A DNA stretch of 64,000 nucleotides from the NCBI RefSeq assembly GCF_036507355.1, contig NZ_AP027877.1; one strand, 5' to 3'. The notes beneath the pieces were generated by a model that searched no databases, was not told the origin of the DNA, and saw only the letters and a program-made list of their open reading frames with translations. This document shows, one piece after another, positions 2,032 through 51,280 of the stretch. Every line of letters begins with the position of its first letter. Position 1 is the stretch's first letter. This DNA comes from Escherichia coli. Lineage in GTDB: Bacteria; Pseudomonadota; Gammaproteobacteria; Enterobacterales; Enterobacteriaceae. The position numbers and the translations under genes are program-made.

Positions 2032-4662
2032 ATGAGCAAGAGCACCGCTGAGATCCGTCAGGCGTTTCTCGACTTTTTCCATAGTAAGGGACATCAGGTA
2101 GTTGCCAGCAGCTCCCTGGTACCCCATAACGACCCAACTTTGTTGTTTACCAACGCCGGGATGAACCAGTTCAAGGATGTGTTCCTTGGGCTCGACAAGC
2201 GTAATTATTCCCGCGCTACCACTTCCCAACGCTGCGTGCGTGCGGGTGGTAAACACAACGACCTGGAAAACGTCGGTTACACCGCGCGTCACCATACCTT
2301 CTTCGAAATGCTGGGCAACTTCAGCTTCGGCGACTATTTCAAACACGATGCCATTCAGTTTGCATGGGAACTGCTGACCAGCGAAAAATGGTTTGCCCTG
2401 CCGAAAGAGCGTCTGTGGGTTACCGTCTATGAAAGCGACGACGAAGCCTACGAAATCTGGGAAAAAGAAGTAGGGATCCCGTGCGAACGTATTATTCGCA
2501 TCGGCGATAACAAAGGTGCGCCATACGCATCTGACAACTTCTGGCAGATGGGGGACACTGGTCCGTGCGGCCCGTGCACCGAAATCTTCTACGATCACGG
2601 CGACCACATTTGGGGTGGCCCTCCGGGAAGTCCGGAAGAAGACGGCGACCGCTACATTGAGATCTGGAACATCGTCTTCATGCAGTTCAACCGCCAGGCC
2701 GATGGCACGATGGAACCGCTGCCGAAGCCGTCTGTAGATACCGGTATGGGTCTGGAGCGTATTGCTGCGGTGCTGCAACACGTTAACTCTAACTATGACA
2801 TCGACCTGTTCCGCACGTTGATCCAGGCGGTAGCGAAAGTCACTGGTGCAACCGATCTGAGCAATAAATCGCTGCGCGTAATCGCTGACCACATTCGTTC
2901 TTGTGCGTTCCTGATCGCGGATGGCGTAATGCCGTCCAATGAAAACCGTGGTTATGTACTGCGTCGTATCATTCGTCGCGCAGTGCGTCACGGCAATATG
3001 CTCGGCGCGAAAGAAACCTTCTTCTACAAACTGGTTGGTCCGCTGATCGACGTTATGGGCTCTGCGGGTGAAGACCTGAAACGCCAGCAGGCGCAGGTTG
3101 AGCAGGTGCTGAAGACTGAAGAAGAGCAGTTTGCTCGTACTCTGGAGCGCGGTCTGGCGTTGCTGGATGAAGAGCTGGCAAAACTTTCTGGTGATACGCT
3201 GGATGGTGAAACTGCTTTCCGTCTGTACGATACCTATGGCTTCCCGGTTGACCTGACGGCTGATGTTTGTCGTGAGCGCAACATCAAAGTTGACGAAGCT
3301 GGTTTTGAAGCAGCAATGGAAGAGCAGCGTCGTCGGGCGCGCGAAGCCAGCGGCTTTGGTGCCGATTACAACGCAATGATCCGTGTTGACAGTGCATCTG
3401 AATTTAAAGGCTATGACCATCTGGAACTGAACGGCAAAGTGACCGCGCTGTTTGTTGATGGTAAAGCGGTTGATGCCATCAATGCAGGCCAGGAAGCTGT
3501 GGTCGTGCTGGATCAAACGCCATTCTATGCGGAATCCGGCGGTCAGGTTGGCGATAAAGGCGAGCTGAAAGGCGCTAACTTCTCCTTTGCGGTGGAAGAT
3601 ACGCAGAAATACGGCCAGGCGATTGGTCACATCGGTAAACTTGCTGCGGGTTCTCTGAAAGTGGGCGACGCTGTGCAGGCTGATGTTGATGAGGCTCGTC
3701 GCGCCCGTATTCGTCTGAATCACTCCGCAACGCACCTGATGCACGCTGCGCTGCGCCAGGTTCTGGGTACTCATGTATCGCAGAAAGGTTCACTGGTTAA
3801 CGACAAGGTGCTGCGCTTCGACTTCTCACACAACGAAGCGATGAAACCAGAAGAGATTCGTGCGGTCGAAGACCTGGTGAACGCACAGATTCGTCGCAAT
3901 TTGCCGATCGAAACCAACATCATGGATCTCGAAGCGGCGAAAGCGAAAGGTGCGATGGCGCTGTTCGGCGAGAAGTATGATGAGCGCGTACGCGTGCTGA
4001 GCATGGGCGATTTCTCCACCGAGCTGTGTGGCGGTACTCACGCCAGCCGCACTGGTGATATTGGTCTGTTCCGCATCATCTCTGAATCGGGTACTGCTGC
4101 AGGCGTTCGTCGTATCGAAGCGGTAACCGGAGAAGGTGCTATCGCCACCGTTCATGCAGACAGCGATCGCTTAAGCGAAGTCGCGCATCTGCTGAAAGGC
4201 GATAGCAATAATCTGGCTGATAAAGTGCGCTCAGTACTGGAACGTACGCGTCAGTTAGAAAAAGAACTACAACAGCTTAAAGAACAAGCTGCCGCACAGG
4301 AGAGCGCAAATCTTTCCAGTAAGGCAATTGATGTTAATGGTGTTAAGCTGTTGGTTAGCGAGCTTAGCGGTGTTGAGCCGAAAATGTTGCGTACCATGGT
4401 TGACGATTTAAAAAATCAGCTGGGGTCGACAATTATCGTGCTGGCAACGGTAGCCGAAGGTAAGGTTTCTCTGATTGCAGGCGTATCTAAGGACGTCACA
4501 GATCGTGTGAAAGCAGGGGAACTGATTGGTATGGTCGCTCAGCAGGTGGGCGGCAAGGGTGGTGGACGTCCTGACATGGCGCAAGCCGGTGGTACGGATG
4601 CTGCGGCCTTACCTGCAGCGTTAGCCAGTGTGAAAGGCTGGGTCAGCGCGAAATTGCAATAA
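2032..4662 (+). CDS. alaS: Alanine--tRNA ligase
   Basis: 876-aa ORF with class II aaRS motifs; [24 protein letters not shown]... Confidence 0.97.
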
Positions 4663-4896
4663 TATAAGCGTCAGGCAATGCCGTGGACTCGCTTCACGGC
4701 ATTCGCATTAACGCTATCGACAACGATAAAGTCAGGTTGAAGTTGTGTATATCGGCTAAACTTAGGTTTAACAGAATGTAATGCCATGACTGCTTAGATG
4801 TAATGTGTTTGTCATTGCTTACTTTTTGGCGTTATATGATGGATAATGCCGGGATACAGAGAGACCCGACTCTTTTAATCTTTCAAGGAGCAAAGA

Positions 4897-5082
4897 ATGC
4901 TGATTCTGACTCGTCGAGTTGGTGAGACCCTCATGATTGGGGATGAGGTCACCGTGACAGTTTTAGGGGTAAAGGGCAACCAGGTACGTATTGGCGTAAA
5001 TGCCCCGAAGGAAGTTTCTGTTCACCGTGAAGAGATCTACCAGCGTATCCAGGCTGAAAAATCCCAGCAGTCCAGTTACTAA
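4897..5082 (+). CDS. csrA: Carbon storage regulator CsrA
   Basis: 61-aa [64 protein letters not shown]. Confidence 0.97.
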
Positions 5083-5397
5083 TCTTTCCGCGTCTCATCT
5101 TTATCGGTGAGACGCACCCTCAAAATTTCTCCTTCACTCTATAGTCTTTTCGCTTTACTCCCGTTCATTCAACTTAAGTCTCCATTTTTTTACATTACTG
5201 CTATCTGTCAGACCTCCATTTTTCTGTTGATAAAACACTCTTTTTGACGTTTTTACAGACTAATTGAACGTGAAGTGTGCAAACGATAAAAGTGTGGGAA
5301 AAATTGTTTGACTTATAAGTCTCAGAAAGTAATATGTGCGCCACGCAGCGACGATGAGCGATAAACAAGTTCTTCGAAGCACTCGTAAGAGGCGTGT

Positions 5398-5490
5398 GGT
5401 GAGGTGGCCGAGAGGCTGAAGGCGCTCCCCTGCTAAGGGAGTATGCGGTCAAAAGCTGCATCCGGGGTTCGAATCCCCGCCTCACCGCCA
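5398..5490 (+). tRNA. serV: tRNA-Ser (anticodon GCU)
   Basis: 93-nt sequence ggtgaggtggccgagaggctgaagg...ctcaccgcca with long variable arm and anticodon loop ctGCTaa. Confidence 0.93.
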
Positions 5491-5493
5491 TTT

Positions 5494-5570
5494 GCATCCG
5501 TAGCTCAGCTGGATAGAGTACTCGGCTACGAACCGAGCGGTCGGAGGTTCGAATCCTCCCGGATGCACCA
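5494..5570 (+). tRNA. argV: tRNA-Arg (anticodon ACG)
   Basis: 77-nt gcatccgtagctcagctggatagagtactcggctACGaaccgag...ggatgcacca. Confidence 0.93.
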
Positions 5571-5634
5571 TCTCTTACTTGATACGGCTTTAGTAGCGGT
5601 ATCAAAAAATCTGCAGTAAAGTAAGTTTCCCGAT

Positions 5635-5711
5635 GCATCCGTAGCTCAGCTGGATAGAGTACTCGGCTACGAACCGAGCGGTCGGAGGTTCGAATCCTCC
5701 CGGATGCACCA
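5635..5711 (+). tRNA. argY: tRNA-Arg (anticodon ACG)
   Basis: Identical 77-nt tRNA-Arg copy. Confidence 0.93.
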
Positions 5712-5773
5712 TCTCTTACTTGATATGGCTTTAGTAGCGGTATCAATATCAGCAGTAAAATAAATTTCCCGAT

Positions 5774-5850
5774 GCATCCGTAGCTCAGCTGGATAGAGTA
5801 CTCGGCTACGAACCGAGCGGTCGGAGGTTCGAATCCTCCCGGATGCACCA
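5774..5850 (+). tRNA. argZ: tRNA-Arg (anticodon ACG)
   Basis: Identical 77-nt tRNA-Arg copy. Confidence 0.93.
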
Positions 5851-5952
5851 TATTCTCCGTAATCATCAGTGATGATGGTTAAGAAGGATTTTCTTACTTG
5901 ATATGGCTTTAGTAGCGATATCAATATCAGCAGTAAAATAAATTTTCCCGAT

Positions 5953-6029
5953 GCATCCGTAGCTCAGCTGGATAGAGTACTCGGCTACGAACCGAGCGGT
6001 CGGAGGTTCGAATCCTCCCGGATGCACCA
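5953..6029 (+). tRNA. argQ: tRNA-Arg (anticodon ACG)
   Basis: Identical 77-nt tRNA-Arg copy. Confidence 0.93.
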
Positions 6030-6144
6030 TATTCTCCGAAATCTTCAGCAATGAAGGTATCGAAGAGGTAGCGGAATTAACCGCAGGCACCAGGGATGAT
6101 AACGTTGCGCCAGCAACGGCCCGAAGGGCGAACGCCAGTGAGTC

Positions 6145-6162
6145 ATCCTCCCGGATGCACCA
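6145..6162 (+). repeat. Partial direct repeat of the tRNA-Arg 3' end (tRNA remnant or att-like scar)
   Basis: atcctcccggatgcacca matches the last 18 nt of the upstream tRNA-Arg genes, 115 bp after argQ. Confidence 0.6.
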
Positions 6163-6309
6163 TCTTCTCCAAAAAATTTCCTTCAAAAATATCTCATTTC
6201 TAAATAACTACTTTATCCATTTCCTGAATTTTCTTCTCCTTCGCCATCAGCGACAAAATCAAGCAATTACGCTAAAGTAGCGTCATATTTTTCGACTTGC
6301 GAGAAGACC

Positions 6310-6876
6310 ATGTACGAGCGTTATGCAGGTTTAATTTTTGATATGGATGGCACAATCCTGGATACGGAGCCTACGCACCGTAAAGCGTGGCGCGAAGTAT
6401 TAGGGCACTACGGTCTTCAGTACGATGTTCAGGCGATGATTGCGCTTAATGGATCGCCCACCTGGCGTATTGCTCAGGCAATTATTGAGCTGAATCAGGC
6501 CGATCTCGACCCGCATGCGTTAGCGCGTGAAAAAACAGAAGCAGTAAGAAGTATGCTGCTGGATAGTGTCGAGCCGCTTCCTCTTGTTGAAGTGGTGAAA
6601 AGTTGGCATGGACGTCGGCCAATGGCGGTAGGAACGGGGAGTGAAAGCGCCATCGCTGAGGCATTGCTGGCGCACCTGGGATTACGCCGTTATTTTGACG
6701 CCGTCGTCGCTGCTGATCACGTCAAACACCATAAACCCGCGCCAGACACATTTTTGTTGTGCGCGCAGCGTATGGGCGTGCAACCGACGCAGTGTGTGGT
6801 CTTTGAAGATGCCGATTTCGGTATTCAGGCGGCCCGTGCAGCAGGCATGGACGCCGTGGATGTTCGCTTGCTGTGA
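6310..6876 (+). CDS. yqaB: HAD-family sugar phosphatase (fructose-1-phosphate phosphatase YqaB)
   Basis: 188-aa ORF with HAD motif I FDMDGTILDTE. Confidence 0.9.
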   Translation: MYERYAGLIFDMDGTILDTEPTHRKAWREVLGHYGLQYDVQAMIALNGSPTWRIAQAIIELNQADLDPHALAREKTEAVRSMLLDSVEPLPLVEVVKSWHGRRPMAVGTGSESAIAEALLAHLGLRRYFDAVVAADHVKHHKPAPDTFLLCAQRMGVQPTQCVVFEDADFGIQAARAAGMDAVDVRLL

Positions 6877-43047: not shown

Positions 43048-43123
43048 GGCCCTTTAGCTCAGTGGTTAGAGCAGGCGACTCATAATCGCTTGGTCGCTGG
43101 TTCAAGTCCAGCAGGGGCCACCA
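43048..43123 (+). tRNA. ileY: tRNA-Ile2 (anticodon CAU/lysidine type)
   Basis: 76-nt ggccctttagctcagtggttagagcaggcgactCATaatcgcttggtcgctggttcaagtccagcaggggccacca. Confidence 0.9.
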
Positions 43124-50917: not shown

Positions 50918-51280
50918 TGGTGGAGCTGGCGGGAGTTGAACCCGCGTCCGAAATTCCTACATCCTCGGTACTACATGCTTAGTCAGTCTTTACATTCGCT
51001 TGCCAGCTGCGGACGGACACGCCACTAACAAACTAGCCTGATTAAGTTTTAACGCTTCAACCCCAGGCAGGGCTTCCACGCGATCTCTTTTGGGTTTGAC
51101 CTCTCTTGATCCCCGTCCTAAGAGCGGAGGCTAGGGAGAGAGGGCTCTAAGCAGGTTATTAAGCTGCTAAAGCGTAGTTTTCGTCGTTTGCGACTATTTT
51201 TTGCGGCTTTTTACGAGGCCAACCGCCCCTCGGCATGCACCTTGGGTTTCGCAAATCCCGTCGAATCCAGAATCAGCCCC
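50918..51280 (-). ncRNA. ssrA: tmRNA (SsrA)
   Basis: Minus-strand reading starts ggggctgattctggattcgacggg and ends gttcaactcccgccagctccacca; encodes tag peptide ANDENYALAA (gcaaacgacgaaaactacgctttagcagct); 363 nt. Confidence 0.95.

Follow-up and report, generated by a model that had tools for sequence, protein, structure and literature searches.

tRNA-linked repeats (TLRs) are a family of repeated sequences whose name is taken here from PMC8144298 (Front Microbiol 2021). As cited in that paper, TLRs were first described in 1978 by Egan and Landy, in tyrT, and 22 of them, at ten K-12 loci, were catalogued by Rudd in 1999. [quoted passage not shown] No function is known for TLRs according to PMC8144298, which records the retraction of an early RtT phenotype. 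The exception is the 5S-linked rrA, rrB, and rrF, which bind Hfq and CsrA in vitro. The strain table of the same paper includes a strain that lacks every one of the 22 TLRs, and from its entry delta(argY/Z/Q, raQ/Z/V) it follows that the units of the arg operon are raV, raZ, and raQ (PMC8144298).

The tyrT-tyrV locus of K-12 holds 178-bp repeats, each with a tRNA-Tyr 3' end, and the annotated rttR runs from 8 nt downstream of tyrV to precisely the CCA that closes the first of these repeats. The RtT RNA, or rttR, of the tyrT repeats was reportedly described by Bosl and Kersten in 1991. Three TLRs are found in serV-argVYZQ of K-12 MG1655, after argV, argZ, and argQ, and each ends in the 3' end of tRNA-Arg.

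The terminal repeat of the serV-argVYZQ operon

The DNA analysed here is a stretch of 64,000 nucleotides from Escherichia coli (contig NZ_AP027877.1), referred to as the window. In it, csrA lies upstream of the serV-argVYZQ operon, and yqaB starts at 6310. The features of the operon and its downstream flank are the following:

5398..5490, + strand: tRNA-Ser(GCU), serV, first gene of the operon (ARAGORN, Rfam tRNA model, K-12 synteny)
5494..6029, + strand: four identical tRNA-Arg(ACG) genes, equivalent to argV, argY, argZ, and argQ (ARAGORN, Rfam tRNA model, K-12 synteny), with copies at 5494-5570, 5635-5711, 5774-5850, and 5953-6029
5851..5888, + strand: stump, 38 nt long, of another TLR, located behind the third tRNA-Arg (alignment, repeat search, comparison with K-12)
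6030..6162, + strand: complete TLR of 133 nt, taken as the raQ orthologue (about 95% identity to the K-12 unit after argQ)
6163..6174, + strand: trailer TCTTCTCCAAAA, which resembles the trailer after argQ and adjoins a real tRNA-Arg in strains lacking the TLR
6269..6293, + strand: first terminator-like hairpin and T-run downstream of the operon (consensus scan alone)
6310..6876, + strand: yqaB, conserved downstream neighbour (context)

The original prediction described an orphan copy of the tRNA-Arg 3' end, 115 bp downstream of the last tRNA-Arg and without the rest of a tRNA. This description holds in each of its parts. On exact alignment, ATCCTCCCGGATGCACCA at 6145–6162 on the + strand is identical in 18/18 nt to the 3' terminus of all four tRNA-Arg(ACG) genes. 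The window contains five exact copies of it, namely the four tRNA-Arg 3' ends and the orphan, and the count is still exactly five when up to two mismatches are allowed. The gap between the last tRNA-Arg, which ends at 6029, and the orphan is indeed 115 nt, and neither ARAGORN nor the Rfam tRNA model predicts a tRNA at the orphan. The name argQ given to that last gene is backed by synteny with K-12 (csrA, serV, four tRNA-Arg genes, yqaB). The likeness between the orphan and argQ extends a few bases beyond the CCA, with TCTTCTCC after the orphan and TATTCTCC after argQ; the repeat family to which the two ends belong agrees at 93% over 30 nt.

The orphan is the end of a unit, 6030–6162, that starts with the base after argQ and so stands directly downstream of a stable-RNA gene. 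Its approximately 95% identity to the K-12 unit after argQ, together with the same flanks, identifies it as the orthologue of raQ, which is listed with argY/Z/Q in the supplement of PMC8144298. Its core is homologous to the tyrT and rrnB units and is found again, in other species, behind five types of tRNA. With high probability, then, the orphan is the defining 3' terminus of a TLR, the raQ orthologue, for which a mechanism involving RNA processing and DNA recombination is proposed below. The feature is an already described E. coli repeat and in that respect ordinary.

Against 6037–6162, the Rfam model of RtT RNA (RF00391) yields 25.6–27.4 bits (E = 0.002–0.04), with a good alignment in the 3' half. 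These scores fall short of the gathering score of 45 bits, and therefore the unit goes unannotated by Rfam; RefSeq likewise annotates nothing at its position. The K-12 arg units score 22.8–31 bits and the tyr units 133–137 bits, and the rrnB unit is not detected. The Rfam RtT model covers the tyr subfamily alone, of which the arg unit is a distant relative and not a member.

The first 79 nt of the complete unit differ from K-12 raZ at one position and from raQ at six, whereas its last 54 nt have a single mismatch to K-12 raQ. This mosaic suggests gene conversion or recombination between TLR copies. The stump at 5851–5888 has only its 5' leader left (TATTCTCCGTAATCATCAGTGATGATGGTTAAGAAGG); it has lost the core together with the orphan 3' end and joins the normal inter-tRNA spacer directly. 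The full unit raZ occupies this site in K-12, and the same stump is found in FDAARGOS_448.

Other features of the window were noted alongside. A repeat search found that the inter-tRNA spacers 5573–5629, 5714–5770, and 5892–5948 share a 57-nt repeat with an inverted repeat, TTGATAYGGCTTTAGTAGCGRTATCAA, which may be a processing hairpin; the papers naming argV/Y/Z/Q do not treat these spacers. The window also has a tRNA with anticodon CAT at 43048–43123 (+) and a tmRNA gene at 50918–51280 (-). Both tmRNA and tRNA genes are classic integration targets, and no orphan copy of the last 23 nt of either gene occurs anywhere in the window. The corresponding stretch of strain A16 is not colinear with the window at the window's far end.

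Architecture of the unit and its relatives

Within the unit, the following parts were distinguished:

6033..6084, + strand: leader common to the E. coli arg units and different in other genera, with two predicted hairpins at 6033-6066 and 6071-6084 (minimum free energy fold, K-12 arg units)
6093..6100, + strand: GGGATGAT, 5' strand of the predicted closing helix (fold, class-specific pairing)
6103..6129, + strand: TLR core, with hairpin 1, CGTTGC-GCCA-GCAACG (6103-6118), and hairpin 2, GCCC-GAA-GGGC (6119-6129) (tyrT RtT repeats, rrnB T1-T2 spacer, other species)
6130..6144, + strand: degenerate third hairpin, GAACGCCAGTGAGTC, with 2 bp left (comparison with other units)
6145..6162, + strand: orphan copy of the last 18 nt of tRNA-Arg (TLR hallmark, PMC8144298)

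The orphan consists of the end of the T-loop, the 3' strand of the T-stem, the 3' strand of the acceptor stem, and ACCA. GGGATGAT is complementary to the T-stem 3' strand within the orphan and resembles GGAGG, the T-stem 5' strand of tRNA-Arg; in the window copy, it is the only part to resemble such a strand, and the interval contains no tRNA call. The RNA of the unit is predicted to fold at -49.9 kcal/mol (z = -4.0 against shuffles) into two leader hairpins and a three-hairpin junction, in which GGGAUGAU (6093–6100) pairs with the beginning of the orphan to form the closing helix. This helix differs between tRNA classes, pair 4-65 being GC in Arg units and UA in Lys units. Unit bodies also pair best with the 3' end of their own tRNA for Arg (18/22), Tyr (27/32), and Lys (18/28), and not for Pro, whose end is too similar to that of Arg for this duplex test to separate the two.

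Relatives were sought in one genome per species from 100,044 species with the pattern GTTGC-N4-5-GCAACGRCCCGAAGGG, which was found in at least 120 stretches. The matches listed comprise 178 core matches at 122 loci (120 scan stretches, K-12, and the window). Nearly all come from Enterobacterales, some from Orbales (Gilliamella, Zophobihabitans), and a few from Alteromonadales and Oceanospirillales. Among these 178 core matches, the nearest upstream tRNA on the same strand is Tyr in 53, Lys in 42, Arg(ACG) in 34, Pro(UGG) in 14, Glu in three, Arg(CCG) in two, and Pro(CGG) in one; for the other 29, no upstream tRNA on the same strand lies within the stretch compared. An exact copy of 16–20 nt of the nearest upstream tRNA's 3' end terminates 112 of the 178 listed, and the remainder are mostly copies with one or two mismatches or loci cut off early. 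Nearly all units with an exact copy pass into the tRNA part at one and the same T-loop position (...GAGT[A/C]|ATCC).

A direct alignment of the arg and tyrT units yields a shared architecture of CGTTGC-loop-GCAACG, GCCCGAAGGGC, a third hairpin, GAGT(A/C), and the last 18–19 nt of the local tRNA. The core is found likewise in the rrnB T1-T2 spacer, where a copy of the 5S rRNA 3' end comes next. Hairpins 1 and 2 are invariant in the survey because the search pattern required them, and the covariation count on the short-form alignment is for the same reason uninformative about them. Hairpin 3 lies outside the search pattern. Between the conserved YGA...GAGU, it takes the form of about 15 compensatory stems that differ among units, and it is eroded in the window copy and in K-12 raQ.

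The synteny csrA-serV-arg-yqaB is kept across Enterobacterales, with varying number and position of TLRs; in distant genera, gene order only was used for the yqaB synteny, as percent identities are not meaningful there. Salmonella arizonae has the same TLR layout as the window. Upstream of the core, the arg unit of Yersinia nurmii retains the anticodon arm, variable loop, and T-stem of tRNA-Arg, and long-form units carry the cognate T-stem 5' strand and TTCGA about 20 nt before hairpin 1. On account of these tRNA pieces, the units look like partial tRNA copies with an insert of about 70 nt in the T-loop, a derivation that we infer from sequence comparison.

The long-form units have further peculiarities. 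In Lys, Pro, and Glu units (Pantoea, a provirus contig, Aestuariibacter), the block that is repeated extends over the Rho-independent terminator after the tRNA, giving the layout tRNA-terminator-[TLR-terminator] x2-3; the units are thus behind a terminator, like rrB between T1 and T2. Upstream of the core, long-form units have a hairpin made of tRNA-specific T-stem strands with a conserved loop, AUGAGAA, and beyond this hairpin the T-stem 5' strand occurs once more, which would allow several mutually exclusive pairings (T5-loop-T3, T3-T5', and T5 with the final T3). In Marinobacterium and Amphritea, the core follows tRNA-Arg(CCG) and has a terminal segment unlike the 3' end of that tRNA; these units may be decayed copies or may belong to a different tRNA. 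Some draft assemblies contain tiny contigs (246, 335, 315, 228, and 394 bp) with apparently little besides TLR and tRNA sequence. TLRs evidently break short-read assemblies, and draft genomes are therefore an unreliable guide to the copy number of TLRs and tRNAs.

Strain polymorphism and alternative origins of the orphan end

The junction of core, orphan, and flank was followed in complete E. coli genomes with 6113–6232 as the query, counting matches with at least 80% coverage. It is present in 4,735 of 5,426 genomes (87%), leaving about 13% without it. Five exceptions lacking the junction were inspected, and none has an island or integrase at the site. In MMC-J-0078 and UTAK-12, the unit is precisely absent, and argQ's own 3' end takes the orphan's place, 147 nt before yqaB. 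In A0 34/86, which carries five tRNA-Arg genes, TLRs are missing altogether; the fifth gene ends exactly where the orphan ends, again at a distance of 147 nt from the yqaB ATG. In FDAARGOS_448, 70 nt comprising core and orphan are deleted between two GCACCA repeats, and KTa005 has an IS3 nested in an IS1 (4059–5945 of its stretch) just downstream of raQ. The reverse case is the unit after argV in K-12, which is precisely absent from the window. Clean gains and losses of the unit thus end exactly at the direct repeat. Since hairpin 3 is eroded in the window copy and about 13% of genomes are without the junction, any function must be dispensable.

One alternative is a plain pseudogene, in which a fifth tandem tRNA-Arg decayed randomly and left no conserved identity of its own. 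The idea of a decayed fifth tRNA had been raised for this site, and it is correct insofar as A0 34/86 has a complete tRNA-Arg with its end precisely at that of the orphan. The tRNA pieces retained in Yersinia nurmii and in long-form units, and the preference of unit bodies for the 3' end of their own tRNA, speak for it as well. However, the interval is not a tRNA in random decay. The 115 nt are not tRNA-like by ARAGORN or the Rfam tRNA model and make up a conserved, structured TLR, whose core also occurs downstream of Tyr, Lys, Pro, and Glu tRNA genes and of 5S rRNA, in several gammaproteobacterial orders. The compensatory changes of hairpin 3 are unexpected under neutral decay. The placing of the tRNA-part junction at one T-loop position in almost every unit examined also speaks against it. 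As an exclusive explanation, the plain pseudogene is improbable and has largely been refuted, since the interval is homologous across tRNA classes. That the whole TLR family derives from tRNAs is possible and would be compatible with the identification of the unit as a TLR.

An att-type scar was the other origin suggested for the orphan, which would then be attR-like debris of a tRNA-targeting integrative element that once lay between argQ and the orphan. An 18–19-nt direct repeat from the T-loop to CCA is the att core geometry of P4-type tyrosine integrases. The repeat at this site has that geometry and bounds the filled and empty alleles exactly. A direct repeat bounding the segment is, however, common to att scars and TLRs and is therefore non-discriminating. 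Several observations tell against a scar. Among the genomes inspected, none has an integrase, island, or phage gene at the site, the sole foreign DNA being the IS1/IS3 downstream in KTa005. The junction is intact in most E. coli genomes, and units of this kind stand in tandem arrays and follow 5S rRNA genes as well.

Searches of viral, phage, and plasmid collections lent no support to an attP origin. The core occurs in just three of 2.9 million viral contigs, and in two of the three the neighbouring sequence (tRNA-Lys with tandem TLRs in one case, K-12-like DNA of the tyrT locus in the other) is taken as host sequence. The four matches in the phage collection are all from Salmonella, three in contigs of 0.5–0.7 Mb and one in an unannotated 7-kb record named as phage. 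Plasmid matches are mostly megabase-scale, with a few smaller Klebsiella plasmid records (14–243 kb). Neither the inspected genomes nor these core searches produced an integrase-bearing element at the site or an arm matching attP. The att scar, whose probability is very small indeed, is not supported as a reading of the site, there being no mobile-element footprint at the inspected loci.

A separate observation concerns one 'viral' contig, in which a foreign ORF-like sequence abuts a truncated tyr TLR at about 4600–4837.

A chance match of 18 nt can be dismissed, as none of 100 dinucleotide-preserving shuffles contained any match to ATCCTCCCGGATGCACCA, even at two mismatches, and the unit is kept across genera.

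Proposed mechanism and comparison with known systems

The mechanism proposed for the unit has two levels. The unit is probably co-transcribed with the tRNAs of the operon because no terminator-like site separates argQ from it in the consensus scan, the first lying at 6269. In the unit RNA, the T-stem 3' strand of the orphan is predicted to pair with the upstream GGGAUGAU and thereby to close the three-hairpin junction. The ...GCACCA end and its A/U-rich trailer could be cut and trimmed by tRNA 3'-end nucleases, as a real tRNA end would be. By analogy with RttR from tyrT, this would release a CCA-ending RNA of about 126–133 nt. A second analogy is provided by RrB, whose 3' end maps 3 nt past its repeat (PMC8144298). 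On the DNA side, unequal recombination acting on the 18-nt repeat and on the identical tRNA genes would add or remove TLRs and tRNA copies.

The core invites a further, speculative reading, in which its approximately 70 nt are a present or past site-specific insertion module. In long-form units, a partial copy of the local tRNA is split cleanly by the core between T-loop A58 and A59 (TTCGA|core|ATCC), and in the 5S-linked units, which carry a partial 5S copy, about 12–18 nt separate the core from the 3' end of that copy. Homology of the core extends over the Tyr, Lys, Arg, Pro, Glu, and 5S loci, and the flanking stems are locus-specific. The same pattern equally fits ancient duplication with gene conversion, and an insertion module seems rather unlikely. 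If true, it would mean an unrecognised mechanism targeting the 3' domain of stable-RNA genes and a CCA-ended mimic of the tRNA acceptor/T-arm minihelix coming from many tRNA operons of Gammaproteobacteria. This question concerns the origin of the TLR family and not this locus.

For the window itself, a described but little-cited repeat such as the raQ orthologue has little significance. Since standard annotation leaves raQ blank, the practical value lies in a correct label and in the removal of a false mobile-element lead. The TLR core is widespread, tracks the local tRNA 3' end, and shows compensatory change, so that the family merits experimental attention; that, too, is a question for the family more than for the locus.

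The closest known system is K-12 raQ, which shares with the window unit its position directly after argQ and before yqaB, its sequence, the 18-nt tRNA-Arg end, and the core. Unlike the window, with one full TLR and a stump of 38 nt, the K-12 operon has three full units. The RtT/rttR repeats of tyrT (RF00391) resemble the arg unit in having a leader, a strand complementary to the T-stem 3' strand, the GTTGC..GCAAC and GCCCGAAGGGC hairpins, a third hairpin, and a terminal 18–19 nt of the local tRNA 3' end. However, they are about 178 nt long as opposed to 133 nt for the short-form arg unit, which lacks the pseudo T-arm segment and the tpr ORF and ends as tRNA-Arg rather than tRNA-Tyr.

The repeats rrA, rrB, and rrF, located between T1 and T2 of rrnA, rrnB, and rrnD (PMC8144298), likewise have the core hairpins, after which the 3' end of the upstream gene is repeated. 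They differ from the arg unit in being 5S-linked, in lying between two terminators, and in their reported in vitro binding of Hfq and CsrA; for the 19 tRNA-linked TLRs, the predictor used in that paper gives a CsrA-binding probability below 0.01 (PMC8144298). The attL/attR sites of P4-like elements also have a direct repeat of the 3' part of a tRNA from the T-loop on, whereas here the repeats are only 115 nt apart, the sequence between them being non-coding and structured, with no integrase and with a core that is rare in the collections. Finally, the sRNA sponge 3'ETS-leuZ (Lalaouna 2015, as cited in PMC8144298) is, in that citation, an RNA freed from the trailer of a tRNA operon by tRNA-processing nucleases, as the arg TLR RNA would be. 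The two have no sequence kinship, and the arg TLR has no known pairing target; by analogy, its RNA could nevertheless have a role of the 3'ETS-leuZ kind.
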